The notes under the pieces: model-generated | Database searches by the model: none | Told to the model about the DNA's origin: nothing | What the model saw: the letters and a program-made list of their open reading frames with translations, nothing else | In this document: in pieces, positions 43,265 through 63,051 of the stretch | How positions within the stretch are numbered: position 1 is the stretch's first letter | Layout of the letters: every line of letters begins with the position of its first letter | Program-made: the position numbers and the translations under genes | Source of the DNA: an uncultured Candidatus Saccharibacteria bacterium | Lineage (GTDB): Bacteria; Patescibacteriota; Minisyncoccia; Phycocordibacterales; UBA9973 | Assembly: GCA_964502615.1 (NCBI GenBank) | Contig: CAZCXF010000001.1 | Span: 50,722-114,721 of the forward strand | Length of the DNA stretch: 64,000 nt | Direction of reading: 5' to 3'

Positions 43265-43552
43265 ATGGCAAAAAAGTTATACGTCGGAGGTCTTCCTTAT
43301 AAGACGACTAACGATGAGCTCAAGGCACATTTTGAGCAAGCAGGTCCTGTTGCATCAGCAACTATTATCATGGATAAGATGACTGGTCGCTCAAAAGGCT
43401 TCGGTTTCGTAGAAATGGAAAACGATGCAGATGCCGACAAAGCTATCTCAATGTTTGATGGCAAGGATTACGAAGGTCGTAACCTTACAGTGAACGAAGC
43501 TCGCCCTATGGAAGCTCGCCCACAAAGTGGTGGTTTCCGTGGAAACAGATAG
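43265..43552 (+). CDS. RRM-domain RNA-binding protein with RGG-like tail
   Basis: RNP-2 LYVGGL and RNP-1 KGFGFVEM motifs. Confidence 0.85.
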   Translation: MAKKLYVGGLPYKTTNDELKAHFEQAGPVASATIIMDKMTGRSKGFGFVEMENDADADKAISMFDGKDYEGRNLTVNEARPMEARPQSGGFRGNR

Positions 43553-50550: not shown

Positions 50551-50925
50551 CTATTTATACAATCTATTGCGTCTTTCTCGTATCTCTCTCATAACCTTGA
50601 GGTTTTTGTGTATAGATACTATGTAAAAAATTGCGGTAATTGCAATCCATACAATGGGCACCACACCAGTAAAACCAGATGAAAAACTTACTATCCATAA
50701 AAAGATTGATAATTTTCCAAGAAAGTCTATTGATGTAAATTCCCGATCGTTTATCCGTACAATACACCACTGAAGTATTGCAACAACAACAGAAAACTTT
50801 AACGCAGACAGGACATCGTCCTTACCTATGAGTACCCATGACCAACATATTATCCCGATAATAATAAAGATAATTACAGGGACCAAAATGTTTTTGGCCT
50901 TTATTTTCATTTCTTTCTCTTTCAT
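50551..50925 (-). CDS. hypothetical 4-TM membrane protein
   Basis: 124 aa. Overlaps its upstream partner by 4 nt. Confidence 0.4.
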   Translation of the reverse strand: MKEKEMKIKAKNILVPVIIFIIIGIICWSWVLIGKDDVLSALKFSVVVAILQWCIVRINDREFTSIDFLGKLSIFLWIVSFSSGFTGVVPIVWIAITAIFYIVSIHKNLKVMREIRERRNRLYK

Positions 50926-53058: not shown

Positions 53059-53087
53059 TTGACTGTGAACGCTCGTTCACATATACT
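53059..53087 (+). promoter_or_regulatory. sigma70-type promoter TTGACT-N17-TATACT with LexA (Cheo-type) box GAACGCTCGTTC in the spacer
   Basis: -35 TTGACT at 53059-53064 and -10 TATACT at 53082-53087 with a 17-nt spacer. GAAC-N4-GTTC at 53067-53078 sits within the palindrome tgtgaacgctcgttcaca. Confidence 0.65.
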
Positions 53088-53126: not shown

Positions 53127-53333
53127 ATGAATAGAGAACAATACATAAAGATAATAGAGAGAGAGCTACAAGCTCTAAATAAGAGGATCGATATGAAGAT
53201 TCTCCAAGGTGTCGAATACAAGCGTGAGGCTCGTGACCACAAAATACTACAAAAGAAAATGATGCAACACTCACGCAAGGGTTTCTTCAATAAATTTCTA
53301 ACCGCAGTGCCTCAATTTATGATATTCTTTTAA
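53127..53333 (+). CDS. small basic protein (68 aa) between the SOS promoter and lexA
   Basis: The ORF occupies the entire gap between the LexA-box promoter and lexA. It has a helical, charged N-terminus and a hydrophobic C-terminal tail. Confidence 0.35.
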   Translation: MNREQYIKIIERELQALNKRIDMKILQGVEYKREARDHKILQKKMMQHSRKGFFNKFLTAVPQFMIFF

Positions 53334-53915: not shown

Positions 53916-54779
53916 ATGGAAGAAATCGAATATAATAAAATTATGCCAGTCTATATTAAACAACAAAAGCCAAGCAAAATTTTAGCTGATGTTGAACTTA
54001 AACCTTACTTTAAAGACAAAGAATTTGTTTTGTATAATGGGGATTCATTACTACTTTTAGAACAATTACCAGAAAATTCTGTAGATATGATATTCGCAGA
54101 TCCACCCTATAACCTTTCTAATGGTGGTTTTACTGTACATGCTGGGCGTATGGTTAGTGTAAATAAAGGTATTTGGGACATAAGTAATGGATTTGAAAAT
54201 GATTATGCTTTCCATTATAAGTGGCTTGAAGCTTGTAAAAGAGTATTAAAACCAGGAGGTACATTGTGGGTTAGTGGAACATATCATTCGATTTATCAGT
54301 GTGGACATGCGCTCCAGGCACTTAATTATCACATATTAAACGATATTTCATGGTTTAAACCTAATGCATCACCAAATTTAAGTTGCCGATTTTTTACAGC
54401 AAGTCACGAAACAATAATTTGGGCTAGAAAAGAAAAGAAAGCAAAACATACTTTTAATTACAAAGAAATGAAAGAGGGTAATTGGCCAGAGGATAAACTA
54501 AAAAAACCAGGTTTGCAAATGAGATCTGTTTGGTCAATAGGAACTCCAAAACCTAATGAAAAAAAATTTGGTAAACACCCTACACAAAAACCAATAGACC
54601 TACTTAAGAGAATTATTCTTGCAAGTACTAATAAGGGTGATGTGATTATCGATCCATTCACAGGAAGCTCAACTACAGGTATAGTAGCTGCCATGCATGG
54701 AAGGAAATTCATTGGGATAGATACTGATAAGAAATTCCTTGATCTCTCTATTAAAAGATTTAAGAACTTAAATAAATAA
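53916..54779 (+). CDS. beta-class N6-adenine/N4-cytosine DNA methyltransferase
   Basis: Motif IV DPPY (FADPPYN) lies N-terminal to motif I (IIDPFTGSSTTG), the beta-class order. ParB-like/N6_N4_Mtase family. Confidence 0.88.
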   Translation: MEEIEYNKIMPVYIKQQKPSKILADVELKPYFKDKEFVLYNGDSLLLLEQLPENSVDMIFADPPYNLSNGGFTVHAGRMVSVNKGIWDISNGFENDYAFHYKWLEACKRVLKPGGTLWVSGTYHSIYQCGHALQALNYHILNDISWFKPNASPNLSCRFFTASHETIIWARKEKKAKHTFNYKEMKEGNWPEDKLKKPGLQMRSVWSIGTPKPNEKKFGKHPTQKPIDLLKRIILASTNKGDVIIDPFTGSSTTGIVAAMHGRKFIGIDTDKKFLDLSIKRFKNLNK

Positions 54780-54780
54780 A

Positions 54781-55305
54781 ATGAAAGAAAAAGGTATAGG
54801 TGGTGCAAATACTCAAACTGGTATAAAATTTGAAAGAAAAATTAATCTTCTTAGATTTATATCGAGTTTAAAAGGGTATAAAGTTAAGAAAAATAAAATA
54901 TTTTACGAAAATAAAGAAGTTGCTAGAAGTTACGCAAAAAATAGTTTATATAATTACTTAAAAGAAAGTGGTGTAGATTACACAAAAGTACTTTCAAAAA
55001 AACTACTACCTGATGAAGCTATATATGTCATTGTTAATAACACATTGTTTGTAATTGAAATGAAATTTCAAAAAGTTGCTGGTTCTGTGGATGAAAAATT
55101 GCAAACTTGCGATTTCAAGAAAAAACAATATCAAAAACTTATGTCACAAATTAATATAGATGTGCATTATATTTACATACTAAGTGACTGGTTTAAAAAA
55201 CCTCAATATAAAGATACCTTGGACTATATTATTTCTGTTGGGTGTCAATATTACTTTGAATATCTACCATTAAAACAAATAGGTATGCCCGTACCAAAAA
55301 AATAA
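54781..55305 (+). CDS. candidate type II restriction endonuclease (PD-ExK-like)
   Basis: The start abuts the MTase stop by 1 nt. A possible PD...ExK catalytic motif occurs (LPDEAIYVI...VIEMKFQK). Confidence 0.4.
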   Translation: MKEKGIGGANTQTGIKFERKINLLRFISSLKGYKVKKNKIFYENKEVARSYAKNSLYNYLKESGVDYTKVLSKKLLPDEAIYVIVNNTLFVIEMKFQKVAGSVDEKLQTCDFKKKQYQKLMSQINIDVHYIYILSDWFKKPQYKDTLDYIISVGCQYYFEYLPLKQIGMPVPKK

Positions 55306-55633: not shown

Positions 55634-56182
55634 ATGAAAACAAAATTAATTTCAATCATTATAGGCCTAGTTTTAGTAGCTGGTGTTGGGACACTAGTAT
55701 ACAAAACAAAGCAACCAGTTGTATTGCCTTCTGAAGATATTACAAATAGTGGATCTACTCTAAACAACAATACAAATGACACACAAAATCAATTACCAGT
55801 AAAAAGTACTACCCCAACAACATCTGTTAAAAAATCTTGGTTTGATGACGACGATGATGACGATGAAGAAGATGGTGGTGGTACTGTTAGCACTCCAGTA
55901 GTAACCCCAAAATCTACTACAACTACCACTACAACTACAACAAGCGGTGGTATAACTCTTGCTACTATTGCAAAGCATAACAGTAGATCTAGTTGTTGGT
56001 CAGCCGTAAATGGTGGTGTATATGACCTTACAAGTTGGATTCCAAACCACCCAGGAGGTGAGCAAGCAATACTTTCCATGTGTGGAGTAGATGGCTCAAG
56101 TGGATACAATGGTCAACATGGAAGTAGTAGTAAGCCAGCTAGAATGCTTGCAGGATTTAAAATAGGTACACTTGCAAAATAA
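55634..56182 (+). CDS. membrane-anchored secreted protein with poly-Asp and poly-Thr linkers and C-terminal cytochrome b5-like heme-binding domain
   Basis: N-terminal TM, DDDDDDDEED and TTTTTTTTT low-complexity runs, then HNSRSSCWSAVNGGVYDLTSWIPNHPGG (cyt b5 HPGG motif) and a second His in GQHGSS. Confidence 0.65.
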   Translation: MKTKLISIIIGLVLVAGVGTLVYKTKQPVVLPSEDITNSGSTLNNNTNDTQNQLPVKSTTPTTSVKKSWFDDDDDDDEEDGGGTVSTPVVTPKSTTTTTTTTTSGGITLATIAKHNSRSSCWSAVNGGVYDLTSWIPNHPGGEQAILSMCGVDGSSGYNGQHGSSSKPARMLAGFKIGTLAK

Positions 56183-56579
56183 TATGAAAATAAATCTAAC
56201 AAGACAAGAATTCGGTCTCCACTTACTACGACTAGGACTCGCAGGAGTATTCCTTTGGTTTGGATTCTCTCAATTGATGGATAGTCTACGATGGGTAAGC
56301 ATAGTCCCAGATTGGGCTGTAAGCTTCCTACATCTTCCTCCAGCGATGATTGTCATGGCAAATGGAACATTTGAAGTGGTTATGGCAACACTTCTTGCTA
56401 TGGGCTTTTTTGTACGAATTACTTCATTTGTACTAGGACTCCACTTGCTAGTCATAGCTTTTGATTTCGGCTTCACAGCTACAGGCATCCGTGACTTGGG
56501 TCTTGTCATAGCATCTCTTGCGCTTTCATTTATATTTACTAAACCAAGCACAGAAATAAAAACAATATCTTCTATCTAA
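56172..56579 (+). CDS. DoxX-family membrane protein
   Basis: 4 TM with LLRLGLAGVFLWFGFSQL. Overlaps the preceding gene by 11 nt. Confidence 0.65.
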   Translation: MQNNMKINLTRQEFGLHLLRLGLAGVFLWFGFSQLMDSLRWVSIVPDWAVSFLHLPPAMIVMANGTFEVVMATLLAMGFFVRITSFVLGLHLLVIAFDFGFTATGIRDLGLVIASLALSFIFTKPSTEIKTISSI

Positions 56580-56581
56580 AC

Positions 56582-56809
56582 ATGTTTGTTCATGTGAAAG
56601 TAAGTGCTGGTAGTAAAAAAGAAGAACTCAATCAAAAGAGCGATGACCATTTTGAAGTATCAGTTCGTGAGAAAGCTGAGCGTAATCTTGCAAACAATCG
56701 CGTCATAGAACTCATAGCCAACCACTTTAAACTTCCCAAATCTCACATCCGTATAATCAACGGTCATCATAGCCCCACAAAACTTTTATCTATAAAAGAT
56801 GCCGAGTAA
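56582..56809 (+). CDS. DUF167/YggU (UPF0235)-family protein
   Basis: VHVKVSAGSKKEEL...FEVSVRE...NRVIELIANHFKLPKSHIRIINGHHSPTKLLSI follows the YggU pattern. Confidence 0.6.
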   Translation: MFVHVKVSAGSKKEELNQKSDDHFEVSVREKAERNLANNRVIELIANHFKLPKSHIRIINGHHSPTKLLSIKDAE

Positions 56810-57080
56810 AGAATACAAATTTAAAGCAAAAGTCTGGAAGTGGCCAGGGGATGGACCATGGCATTTTGTTACTTTGGACAAAAAGATGTCAGAGGAGATA
56901 AGAAATAAATACGGCAAGGGTATGATAAAAATTCGCACAACGGTAGGCAAGACTACTTGGGACAATGCTCTTTTTCCACACAAACTTTCTCAATCCTACC
57001 TTCTTGCAATCAAAAAAATAGTCCGCAAAAATGAAGGTATTTTTGAAGGTGATGAGATAAAAATTAGTTTTAAAATATAG
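56799..57080 (+). CDS. DUF1905-like protein
   Basis: WKWPGDGPWHFVTL matches the DUF1905 core. Overlaps the preceding gene by 11 nt. Confidence 0.45.
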   Translation: MPSKEYKFKAKVWKWPGDGPWHFVTLDKKMSEEIRNKYGKGMIKIRTTVGKTTWDNALFPHKLSQSYLLAIKKIVRKNEGIFEGDEIKISFKI

Positions 57081-57127
57081 ATTTGATTTTTCTTCATTTT
57101 ATGGTAAAGTAGCAAAAAAAATTACAC

Positions 57128-57742
57128 ATGAAAAAGAAAGCACAGACTCCTAAGAAGAGTGAACTTACTGCAACACTGCAGTTCCGAAACAAAGTAGATG
57201 GATTAAAGTACAAAGCCATACCGCTTGATGATGTAACCGCTGATATCGTGGAAAAGCGTCGTGTAAGGCCCAAACGAGCCAGCATAGACAACGTTCTGCA
57301 AAATCAATACCAGTACAAATCAAAAACGAAATACTCCAGCAAGATCCTGACCGCAACCAAGGATGGCGTACTCAATGCAACCGGCACCGCCTGGGTCCAT
57401 GTTGTAAATGAAAGAGACGAACTGGTGTGGACCAGGGAGTTTTACAAAAAGGATCTGAAGGGTGTTTTAAAACGTACAGCCATCTATGGCCAGGTTGCAA
57501 AGAACATTGCTGACAACCGGCCAAGCGGAGCCAAACTCGTGGCATTATCAGAAACTGAATATGCCTGGGTGAGCAAGAATGGTAAAAAATACACTGAATT
57601 CAATCTCAACGATTATTTGTACGGATTAACTGATGCCGAAAAAGCATTCGTGCAGAAGCACGAATACGCCCGTGACTACTACCTCATCAACAGCGAAGGT
57701 AAAGTGGTGAACCGTCAGCGGGAAATTCAGAAAAAATGGTAA
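57128..57742 (+). CDS. hypothetical protein encoded by compositionally atypical (higher-GC) DNA
   Basis: 204 aa with no recognisable motif. Local GC is clearly higher (~45%) than the flanks, with ctg/ccg/gcc/acc-type codons. Confidence 0.5.
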   Translation: MKKKAQTPKKSELTATLQFRNKVDGLKYKAIPLDDVTADIVEKRRVRPKRASIDNVLQNQYQYKSKTKYSSKILTATKDGVLNATGTAWVHVVNERDELVWTREFYKKDLKGVLKRTAIYGQVAKNIADNRPSGAKLVALSETEYAWVSKNGKKYTEFNLNDYLYGLTDAEKAFVQKHEYARDYYLINSEGKVVNRQREIQKKW

Positions 57743-57782
57743 TATGATCTTTCAATAAATGGTTGGTTTAGTTTTGGACAAC

Positions 57783-57811
57783 GCCCGGAGTAACATCCGG
57801 GCTATTTTTTT
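57783..57811 (+). terminator. GC-rich rho-independent terminator gcccgga...tccgggc + T8
   Basis: 7-bp GC stem followed by TATTTTTTT. Confidence 0.75.
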
Positions 57812-57829
57812 ACATGCTACAATAGGTAT

Positions 57830-58741
57830 ATGAAAAAACTGCTCATGATTATTGTTGGAATCGCTATTATTTCAGGAATTATTTACATATCTAAACCAAA
57901 GGAGGCACAAGTAAATATTCCTTTGCCTATTGTTGAGAAGCCAACACCAAATCCCTTGAAGCTCTGCTTCTATAGAGATAAAATCGCAGGAAGTGGATAT
58001 CACGATATTTCATGGATCTCAATTAATATCTTGGGTGACAAAGTTAATGGAGAATTCCAAACTCTTCCAGCCGAGAAAGATAAAAAGATTGGTACATATG
58101 AAGGGACAGTTGGTCCAGTCGATAGAGTCGCTATGGCCCGTACAGCAAATGTCTGGTGGAGTTCTATGGCTGAAGGTATGAACAATAAAGAACAACTCAA
58201 AATAGTATTTGGTGAAGGAACAGCGCAAGCAGCATTTGGTGAAATGGTAGATCGCGGTGATGGAGTATATATTTACAAAGATGAGAGCAAGCTCAAGTTC
58301 GGAGAACCAATGACAGATACAAACTGCGATGATATCCCAAGTATGCTTGCTGTTGCAAACATACAAGGAAATACTTGCTATGCATATCATCAAGTAGCCA
58401 CTCCCGATGCACCATACAAAGCTGATGAATACATAAAGCTTACAGTGGCAGGTGATAAAGTAACAGGCACAAAGAAGGGTACGCAATCAGGCCCAGACCT
58501 TACAAACGGCTATACAGGCACTTTAAAAGGGATGATAGATAAAAAGACACTTAGCGTACTATTTTCATACACTGTTGAAGGAGCAAAGAATACTGAGAGA
58601 GAAATCTATACAGTTCTTCCAGCTGGTTTACAAAAAGAGCGGTACCCGTTGATTGAAAATAAAAATGTTCTTGAACCAGATACCAGCAAAACATCTAAAC
58701 CTCAGCTTTATGAAAACGTAGACTGTGGTACTATAAGATAA
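57830..58741 (+). CDS. hypothetical secreted protein with internal tandem duplication
   Basis: N-terminal TM/signal, then two ~90-aa repeats (ILGDKVNGEF...GTYEGTVGPVD versus VAGDKVTGTK...GYTGTLKGMID). Confidence 0.5.
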   Translation: MKKLLMIIVGIAIISGIIYISKPKEAQVNIPLPIVEKPTPNPLKLCFYRDKIAGSGYHDISWISINILGDKVNGEFQTLPAEKDKKIGTYEGTVGPVDRVAMARTANVWWSSMAEGMNNKEQLKIVFGEGTAQAAFGEMVDRGDGVYIYKDESKLKFGEPMTDTNCDDIPSMLAVANIQGNTCYAYHQVATPDAPYKADEYIKLTVAGDKVTGTKKGTQSGPDLTNGYTGTLKGMIDKKTLSVLFSYTVEGAKNTEREIYTVLPAGLQKERYPLIENKNVLEPDTSKTSKPQLYENVDCGTIR

Positions 58742-58808
58742 TGGTTTTAGTTTTAAAAGATAAAAAATTAGGAGTATGAAGAATTTTATAAATAAATAAT
58801 TTGTTTAT

Positions 58809-59027
58809 ATGAGAAATATAAAAAATTCAACTGGAGGATTTATTGGAATACTCATGATACTGATTACTGTTACTGTAATAATATTCATAATGTTTAGAAC
58901 AGATATGTTTGGCGGTAAGAAGGGAAGTAAGAGTGTAATCGAGCAGGATTTAAACGCAGTACAGCAAGCCAAAGATGTAAAAGCTTTACTCGAGAAAAAT
59001 AGTGCTCAATCAATAGACATTAACTAA
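58809..59027 (+). CDS. hypothetical small membrane protein
   Basis: 72 aa with a single TM. Confidence 0.35.
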   Translation: MRNIKNSTGGFIGILMILITVTVIIFIMFRTDMFGGKKGSKSVIEQDLNAVQQAKDVKALLEKNSAQSIDIN

Positions 59028-60389: not shown

Positions 60390-60647
60390 ATGCCAGCAAC
60401 AAAAACATCCGCATTTATGAAGCCAATGACTATCAGTGCTGATTTAGCAGCTGTAGTAGGCAAGGGGCCTATGCCTCGTTCAGAAGTCGTAAAAGCTCTA
60501 TGGGTTTACATCAAGAAGAACAATCTTCAAGACCCAAAGAACAAGCGTAATATAAATGCAGACGACAACCTAAAGAAAGTATTCGGTGGTAAAGGAGTGG
60601 TAAATATGTTCGAAATGACAAAGCTCGTTTCAAAACATCTTTCATAA
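60390..60647 (+). CDS. SWIB/MDM2-domain protein
   Basis: 85 aa. The segment ISADLAAVVGKGPMPRSEVVKALWVYIKKNNLQDPKNKRNINADDNLKKVFG is a typical SWIB fold. A TGn-extended -10 (tgtggtataat) and an AAAGGAG RBS lie upstream. Confidence 0.8.
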   Translation: MPATKTSAFMKPMTISADLAAVVGKGPMPRSEVVKALWVYIKKNNLQDPKNKRNINADDNLKKVFGGKGVVNMFEMTKLVSKHLS

Positions 60648-62853: not shown

Positions 62854-63051
62854 CTATGCGCGCTGTACGTTTACAGCACTAGGTCCCTTTGCAGTTTCTT
62901 CTGTATCGAAAGTAACAGCGTCACCTTCACGTAGTTCGTCGAACTGAACGTTTACAAGAGAGTTACTGTGGAAGAATAAATCCTTCGCAAGTCCTTCTGC
63001 TGTGATGAAACCGAAACCTTTGTCAGTAAGCTTTTTGATTGAGCCAGTCAT
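62854..63051 (-). CDS. cspA: cold-shock protein (CSD)
   Basis: RNP1 KGFGFI and RNP2-like VTFD motifs. A long 5' UTR lies upstream. Confidence 0.93.
   Translation of the reverse strand: MTGSIKKLTDKGFGFITAEGLAKDLFFHSNSLVNVQFDELREGDAVTFDTEETAKGPSAVNVQRA

Follow-up and report, generated by a model that had tools for sequence, protein, structure and literature searches.

A compositionally anomalous gene in a variable slot at the end of a lexA-headed gene string of a Saccharibacteria genome

Xenologous (in situ) gene displacement by homologous recombination in conserved flanks is established for variable loci in many bacteria. The LexA/SOS regulon of Patescibacteria has reportedly been described as well, by Sanchez-Osuna, Barbe & Erill in 2017 (Environ Microbiol 19:3465). 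In this study we examined a locus that can be compared with both, namely a 615-bp open reading frame (ORF) that stands last in a same-strand gene string headed by lexA (Table 1). This ORF, hereafter called the target, resides in a 64,000-nucleotide stretch (the window; positions 50,722 to 114,721 of contig CAZCXF010000001.1, assembly GCA_964502615.1) from an uncultured Candidatus Saccharibacteria bacterium. A first-pass annotation of this DNA had proposed that the target and the terminator behind it, both rich in guanine plus cytosine (GC), were recently acquired by horizontal transfer. Our findings make a horizontal origin of the window copy likely. In addition, we consider it rather probable that this copy is a GC-rich allele or cassette that was swapped or re-acquired into its habitual slot from an unsampled, GC-richer relative, without the participation of a mobile element.

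Transfers of genes among Patescibacteria are reported to be common and to include functions in DNA replication, recombination and repair, and most single-gene transfers into the group come from other Patescibacteria (Gios et al. 2025, mSystems, PMC12455944). The target fits this pattern of exchange within Patescibacteria, but it differs from the published cases in that it represents a single family, as yet uncharacterised, and a slot that has undergone exchange repeatedly, and in that it was detected by codon usage and not by genome-wide methods. The locus also shares a series of features with xenologous displacement, including conserved position and flanks, the replacement of a resident gene by a distant homolog, identity that falls sharply across the gene, conflict between trees, foreign composition and the lack of mobile-element scars. 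However, replacement is seen directly only between relatives (contigs designated L002 versus L004, and the window copy versus L022), whereas for the window copy itself it is judged from the patchy presence of the gene and from its composition. In addition, some relatives have an empty slot.

If our reading is correct, the locus offers a small, clean case in which streamlined Candidate Phyla Radiation (CPR) genomes renew a gene without mobile elements, by bringing whole promoter-ORF-terminator cassettes into a fixed slot. Nothing is overturned by this. Earlier work has documented that Patescibacteria exchange genes with each other, and xenologous replacement is an ordinary type of exchange.

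Codon usage of the target

Both the ORF and its terminator are located where the first-pass annotation had placed them, and the higher GC content that it had reported was confirmed. The target has a GC fraction of 0.444 compared with 0.347 for the whole window, which, in place of the whole genome, provides the composition background for all outlier statistics given here. Its first and second codon positions (GC1 and GC2) are ordinary, and the excess sits at third codon positions. With a third-position GC fraction (GC3) of 0.498, the target ranks highest among the 74 window ORFs of at least 80 amino acids (aa), for which the mean is 0.252 and the standard deviation 0.064 (z = 3.85). Not one of 5000 random 204-codon chunks taken from the other window genes exceeds a GC3 of 0.324, and the target value lies 0.17 above the maximum reached by any such chunk. 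Likewise, a leave-one-out log-likelihood of synonymous codon use is lowest for the target among the genes of the window (z = -3.70). These findings confirm that the compositional anomaly is real and far beyond chance.

Four codons had been named as distinctive in the first-pass annotation, and three of these are indeed enriched in the target relative to the other window genes (CTG, 0.31 versus 0.03; GCC, 0.47 versus 0.07; ACC, 0.43 versus 0.07). The fourth, CCG, occurs only once and carries no weight. Enrichment extends to other G-ending codons (GTG, 0.41 versus 0.11; CAG, 0.78 versus 0.19), to AGC, and to TAC, AAC, TTC and ATC. The fractions of G (G3, 0.215) and of C (C3, 0.283) at third positions are each the highest of 75 window ORFs.

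The best-fitting segment of high GC3 spans positions 57247-57847, with support for a left edge within 57071-57310 and for a right edge within 57712-57868. A mosaic ORF was considered because GC3 is 0.40 in codons 1-60 and 0.54 in codons 61-205, yet the left boundary is supported anywhere in its range, and this candidate was rejected. A structured RNA or antisense element as the source of the GC excess was also rejected, given that an Rfam scan of the region identified no family and gave no match near a gathering score. An antisense hairpin is present inside the ORF (57644-57667, minus strand, 10 bp, GTATTCGTGCTTCTGCACGAATGC then TTTTTCGG); it scored as terminator-like and may be due to chance.

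A variable slot downstream of DUF1905

The gene immediately upstream of the target encodes a DUF1905 protein and forms the conserved left anchor of the slot. Members of the target family are located directly 3' of DUF1905 in L002, L004, L005 and L006, where the string reads lexA, ATL (DNA_binding_1), TspO, DUF167, DUF1905 and then the homolog, and are located one or two genes further along in L003 and L022. The orthologs exhibit GC3 values that are normal for their own genomes (0.36 in L002, 0.345 in L003, 0.352 in L004 and 0.350 in L022). Therefore, the bias is a property of the window copy and not of the family.

Closer relatives of the window organism were located by using the DUF1905 protein as a probe. 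The closest that were found, L026 and L027 (DUF1905 92% identical, with about 82-95% nucleotide identity), lack a block comprising the spacer, the target, the terminator and the 303-aa gene that follows. In these two contigs, a homolog of the 72-aa gene of the window (58809-59027) begins ~14 nucleotides after DUF1905. An unrelated membrane protein, and not a family member, is encoded after DUF1905 in L024 (DUF1905 81% identical), and the slot in L025 (75%) carries an unrelated 231-aa gene in the absence of the target. In L022 and L023 (80%), DUF1905 is followed by a glyoxalase gene, a 219-aa member of a subfamily with a Zn-ribbon, and an ortholog of the 303-aa gene that is 71% identical to that of the window. 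The 219-aa protein of L022 is recognised by profile search (E = 3e-11) and yields no BLAST match to the window protein. The first-pass annotation had held that orthologs at the same locus in all relatives would speak against import. Such orthologs exist in L002, L003, L004 and L022 and are absent from L026 and L027, and so this argument applies in part.

The contigs compared show a slot that is habitually occupied by the family and is hypervariable, with divergent alleles or subfamilies exchanged and the gene sometimes missing between conserved flanks. Given that relatives carry family members in this slot, the imported DNA is best viewed as a divergent version, be it allele or cassette, of what this position habitually holds and not as a new kind of gene. 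The 303-aa gene moves together with the variable slot, and L026 and L027 lack both it and the target; part of it is 47% identical to a 174-aa gene that is located upstream of the target homolog in L003.

Replacement of the slot's contents is most evident on comparison of L002 and L004. The DUF1905 proteins of these two contigs are 96.8% identical, and the numbers of synonymous substitutions per synonymous site (dS) are only 0.10 for DUF1905 and 0.16 for TspO. In contrast, the target proteins are 48% identical, with a proportion of synonymous differences (pS) of 0.79, which is saturated, and 0.45 nonsynonymous substitutions per nonsynonymous site (dN). The DNA is 95-100% identical up to the DUF1905 stop codon, ~40-65% identical across the target ORF, and again ~80-86% identical at the target stop codon. 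Because synonymous sites of the target are saturated beside flanks with such low dS, the difference between L002 and L004 reflects allele replacement, and positive selection acting in place was excluded as its cause on the same grounds. Neighbour-joining trees conflict in a corresponding manner. Neighbouring genes (DUF1905 plus ATL) join L002 with L004 (100% bootstrap), whereas the target tree groups the window copy, L002, L003 and P0005 and leaves L004 outside (100%). The placement of the window copy within the target tree is weakly resolved (64.5%).

The whole lexA string is mosaic between L002 (200-4371) and L004 (7870-10760), in that blocks of 95-100% identity alternate with blocks of 60-77% identity. 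The latter cover the 3' half of ATL and the 5' half of DUF167. Whole-gene insertions or deletions are also evident, with DinB and DM13 in L002 and a 149-aa gene in L004. Coverage of the L002 contig is only 2.9x.

The target appears to carry its own expression signals. A promoter-like element in the 47-nucleotide spacer after DUF1905 was recognised by reading the sequence, and its score of 8/12 is below the threshold of a consensus promoter scan. An equivalent element (TTGAYT-N16/17-TAnAnn) precedes the homolog in L002, L003 and L004, although the upstream gene is a different one in L003. Located 41 nucleotides past the target stop codon is a hairpin with a 7-bp stem (six G-C pairs) and a 6-nucleotide loop, followed by the T-run TATTTTTTT, and these are the features of a Rho-independent terminator. 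A hairpin with a T-run is also found 3' of the homolog in L002, L003 and L004. These hairpins differ in sequence from that of the window, and a compensatory stem change separates the L002 and L004 versions. Because a promoter-like spacer and a terminator accompany the gene in each of these relatives, whichever gene lies upstream, the promoter-ORF-terminator unit looks like an autonomous cassette.

The first-pass annotation had counted the GC-rich terminator as a foreign sign. This argument fails, given that relatives have G+C-containing hairpins of their own and that other terminator-like sites within the window contain 5-7 G-C pairs. A G+C-rich terminator stem is to be expected in any genome and is uninformative with regard to origin. 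There are just two copies of the sequence TGGTTT(T)AGTTTT in the window, at 57764-57775 and 58742-58754, in each instance just past a stop codon (that of the target and that of the 303-aa gene, respectively). The two copies constitute a direct repeat flanking the terminator plus the 303-aa gene, and this repeat was not found in the relatives searched.

Origin of the window copy

In our preferred explanation, the ORF is a functional member of a family that in this clade habitually closes the lexA string as a promoter-ORF-terminator unit, in a slot that turns over fast as alleles or subfamilies displace each other between conserved anchors. The donor, route and timing of the import we infer as follows. 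The window copy would have come from a relative that has yet to be sampled and whose genome is richer in GC, with a GC3 of at least about 0.5. Most likely it entered by homologous recombination in the conserved flanks, whether in place of a resident allele or into a slot that was empty, and it would not yet have drifted to the host GC3 of 0.25. A horizontal origin is favoured because the anomaly is not shared by the orthologs, because the gene is absent in the closest relatives, and because the trees conflict. Thus, codon usage, patchy presence and tree conflict all uphold this portion of the first-pass proposal.

The same cannot be said for the claim that the acquisition was recent. Strain-level contigs are all clonal, and dS to the nearest relative without the target is about 1-1.4 for most flanking genes. 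The only argument for recency is that the GC3 of the target still stands apart from the host value, towards which it would be expected to drift.

A donor lineage, which the first-pass annotation had proposed to seek by homology searches, was not revealed. Single-sequence and profile searches of collections of 5.8 billion and 1.84 billion proteins gave a best non-self homolog with 58% identity, and nothing closer was present in GTDB genomes, in two metagenome scans, in IMG/VR or among INPHARED phages. Similarly, a search for direct repeats flanking the target, as had also been proposed, yielded only short repeats of chance size. No integrase, transposase or other mobile-element gene is located at the borders, where the neighbours are DUF1905 and the 303-aa gene of unassigned family. 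Because repeats, mobile genes, and phage or IMG/VR matches are all lacking, homologous replacement or refilling fits the data better than insertion mediated by an element.

Several other explanations for the anomaly must be weighed against import of an allele into a habitual slot. The target might instead be a gene that is new to its lineage, which a recent insertion, perhaps via a mobile element, brought in from an unrelated donor of high GC content along with a GC-rich terminator of its own. The GC3 and codon anomaly, the absence of the target after DUF1905 in L024 and in the closest relatives L026 and L027, and a terminator hairpin that differs in sequence from those of relatives are all in accord with such an event. 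However, L002, L003, L004 and L022 all have homologs in this slot, the promoter-like spacer and the position of the terminator are conserved among relatives, and the family is found only in small CPR-like genomes, with Saccharibacteria providing the sole genome match. When combined with the lack of direct repeats, integrase or transposase genes and phage or IMG/VR matches, and with a timing left unconstrained by a nearest relative at dS ~1, these findings make insertion of a new gene unlikely. An origin in place appears quite unlikely as well. By this explanation, the gene was inherited vertically and was lost by the closest relatives, while the anomaly arose through translational selection for C-ending codons, through GC-biased gene conversion at a recombination hot spot, or through both. 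There is some basis for this proposal. The cold-shock gene (62854-63051, minus strand) and the RRM gene (43265-43552, plus strand), which are probably highly expressed, have C3 values of 0.22-0.26 with ordinary G3, a pattern indicating that, in this AT-rich genome, a preference for codons ending in C is linked to expression. The target is enriched in TAC, AAC, TTC and ATC, and part of its C3 excess resembles this expression-linked bias. Moreover, relatives show a visible mosaic and recombination in the region, and the adjacent 303-aa gene looks vertically inherited (71% identity to that of L022, normal GC3). The G3 excess of the target bears no such resemblance, however. Its G-ending codons are strongly enriched, and its G3 is the top value, compared with 0.121 for the cold-shock gene and a range of 0.12-0.17 for the cold-shock and RRM genes. 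Furthermore, orthologs from four other genomes are unbiased even though the same slot recombines there, and the GC3 of the target surpasses by 0.17 the largest value for any 204-codon chunk of other genes.

It is also conceivable that the anomaly is an artefact, produced by chimeric assembly or by a contaminant joined into the contig. Two short contigs that include part of the region, L001 and L020, do have unrelated 5' ends. These odd ends differ from each other and each was seen once, as would be expected of contig-end chimeras. Different JGI and Logan samples supplied ten contigs with 99.98-100% identity to the window, of which eight (L012-L019, up to 12.6 kb) extend across both junctions of the ORF. 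The exact protein is encoded on at least 11 contigs, the longest of which is 224,604 bp, and the gene order agrees with synteny in relatives. An artefact is therefore exceedingly improbable. Import of a divergent allele or cassette into the habitual slot thus remains our preferred explanation.

The two aberrant contigs, which outside their odd ends match the window at 100% identity, merit brief description. L001 (1-598) departs from the window at position 57309, which truncates the target near codon 60, and runs into a GC-rich (GC 0.47) GyrI-like gene. L020 (1-264) departs at 56992, inside DUF1905, and runs into an AT-rich fragment resembling a pseudouridine synthase gene. The 5' end of L001 was considered as a clue to the donor and rejected, because it has no match in the window, because the L020 end is different and AT-rich, and because eight contigs support the window junctions. 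Both ends are probably contig-end chimeras or rare variants.

The protein family and the lexA string

The target belongs to an uncharacterised family that comprises 43 representative clusters in a profile search of 1.84 billion proteins. Its members are basic (median isoelectric point (pI) of 9.8) and ~200-250 aa in length. The sole named genome that carries the family in a GTDB genome search is a Candidatus Saccharibacteria metagenome-assembled genome, and wherever the context of a family member was readable, the genome looked like a small CPR genome. As the first-pass annotation had stated, the target protein has no recognisable motif; comparisons with Pfam, NCBIfam, PHROGs, PADLOC and PDB sequences all lacked a significant match. 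When 37 aligned family members were compared with curated families, only scattered weak matches were obtained, each in a single member, and nothing was consistent. A defence-system or phage family was rejected because PADLOC and PHROGs scans of these 37 members gave no consistent match.

Only W147 is invariant among the 37 members, and P48, Q58, F105 and L137 are conserved in at least 90%. No conserved constellation of D, E, H, K, S or C residues of the kind expected for a nuclease or other enzyme, such as PD-(D/E)XK, exists across these proteins. The family retains a PxRAxxxNxxQxQ[YF] loop, and one subfamily has a Zn-ribbon insertion. An AlphaFold2 model of the 204-aa protein (predicted local distance difference test score of 78.8, predicted template modelling score of 0.79) exhibits a sub-significant resemblance to small alpha+beta inhibitor or immunity structures, namely the T7 Gp1.2 dGTPase inhibitor (7u65/7u66), TriTu (7zhm), CdiI (6cp9) and PsiB (3nct). 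The query-normalised template modelling scores are 0.21-0.24, identity is ~10% or less, only part of the model is covered, and there is no sequence similarity. We regard this resemblance of the modelled fold as a lead and not as a classification.

More distant members, which have the Zn-ribbon, reside in a second type of neighbourhood in another clade (Table 1). The gene order there is a DNA_pol_B_exo2 domain gene, a 247-251-aa gene, the family member and an HhH-GPD/Ogg glycosylase gene. The DNA_pol_B_exo2 (RNase H-like exonuclease) gene was observed in L008 and L028, and in L028 a small minus-strand gene precedes the glycosylase. The 247-251-aa partner gene is likewise unannotated.

Given the basic charge of the protein, the lack of conserved catalytic residues, the conserved loop, the Zn-ribbon variant and the presence of the family in two unrelated repair neighbourhoods, we tentatively suggest that the target might act in the DNA-damage response by binding nucleic acid or a second protein, and not as an enzyme. 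An unannotated family that recurs beside DNA-repair genes would be a candidate accessory factor of the CPR DNA-damage response. A more speculative and unlikely proposal is that the family constitutes a 'conflict' module, in which a non-enzymatic protein of the inhibitor, immunity or adaptor type would be tied to this response. Ancient alleles, including the Zn-ribbon form, would then be kept by balancing or frequency-dependent selection (for example, imposed by phages, hosts or competing strains) and shuffled among Saccharibacteria into the one slot at the end of the lexA string, and the window copy would be a freshly imported allele.

Table 1. Features of the lexA string, the slot and the related neighbourhoods. 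Coordinates are window positions unless a contig is named.
Feature	Coordinates	Strand	Remarks
Promoter-like site heading the string	53059-53087	+	TTGACT-17-TATACT; encloses LexA-box-like perfect palindrome TGTGAACGCTCGTTCACA (53064-53081, GAAC-N4-GTTC)
DUF1905 gene, conserved left anchor of the slot	56799-57080	+	Pfam PF08922, E = 6e-23
Block missing from L026 and L027	57081-58794	+	Spacer, target, terminator and 303-aa gene; boundaries approximate, read from junction sequences
Promoter-like element in spacer after DUF1905	57083-57110	+	TTGATT (57083-57088), 16-nucleotide spacer, TAAAGT (57105-57110); 17 nucleotides before ATG
Target ORF	57128-57742	+	ATG to TAA, 615 bp; 204-aa basic protein (pI 9.8); compositionally anomalous
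Intrinsic-terminator-like hairpin and T-run	57783-57811	+	GCCCGGAGTAACATCCGGGC (57783-57802) then TATTTTTTT; closes the lexA-headed same-strand string
303-aa gene downstream of the target	57830-58741	+	No family match; normal GC3
Zn-ribbon subfamily neighbourhoods	L008 6112-9442; L011 986-3273; L028 28-3548	n/a	Conserved gene order, other clade

The string as a whole reads 68-aa ORF, lexA, restriction-modification pair, ATL, cytochrome b5, DoxX, DUF167, DUF1905 and target. Its repair genes are lexA and the ATL-like DNA_binding_1 gene, to which relatives add Pif1, DinB or DNA_alkylation genes. As might be anticipated for a LexA/SOS regulon, a GAAC-N4-GTTC palindrome overlaps the promoter-like site upstream of lexA, and the target ends a same-strand lexA string that includes repair genes. 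This motif is located at the same relative position in L004 (5326-5337); it was assumed from the Gram-positive-type consensus, which may not be that of this lineage. A terminator scan detected no plus-strand terminator-like site between 53081 and 57783. In contrast to what a regulon member might exhibit, the spacer upstream of the target has no LexA box and has its own promoter-like element. Control of the target from the site at the head of the string, and its membership in an SOS regulon, are therefore put forward only as what this arrangement of motifs might allow.

Additional genes of the string vary among relatives. Immediately before lexA is the conserved 68-aa ORF (53127-53333), for which L022, L024 and L027 have counterparts with 91-94% identity and Pfam gave no match. 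The restriction-modification pair (53916-55305; GC 0.26-0.33), which comprises an N4/N6 DNA methylase and a 174-aa protein with a weak PD-(D/E)XK match, is located between lexA and ATL in the window lineage only. A Pif1 helicase gene precedes ATL in L004 and L022, DinB lies just after ATL in L002, and nothing is present there in L024, L026 and L027. The site is a second variable cargo slot of the lexA string. Between ATL and DUF167 (55634-56579) are genes for a DoxX protein and for a protein with a cytochrome-b5 domain that contains poly-Asp/Glu and poly-Thr tracts. The window shares this pair with L024, L026 and L027 lack it, and TspO is found there in other relatives.

Further downstream, a gene encoding a SWIB-domain protein (60390-60647) specifies a product that is 100% identical to that encoded in L026 (2036-2293). 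Its dS is 0.16, compared with 1-1.7 for the flanking genes, which suggests either recent exchange or unusual constraint on a short gene.

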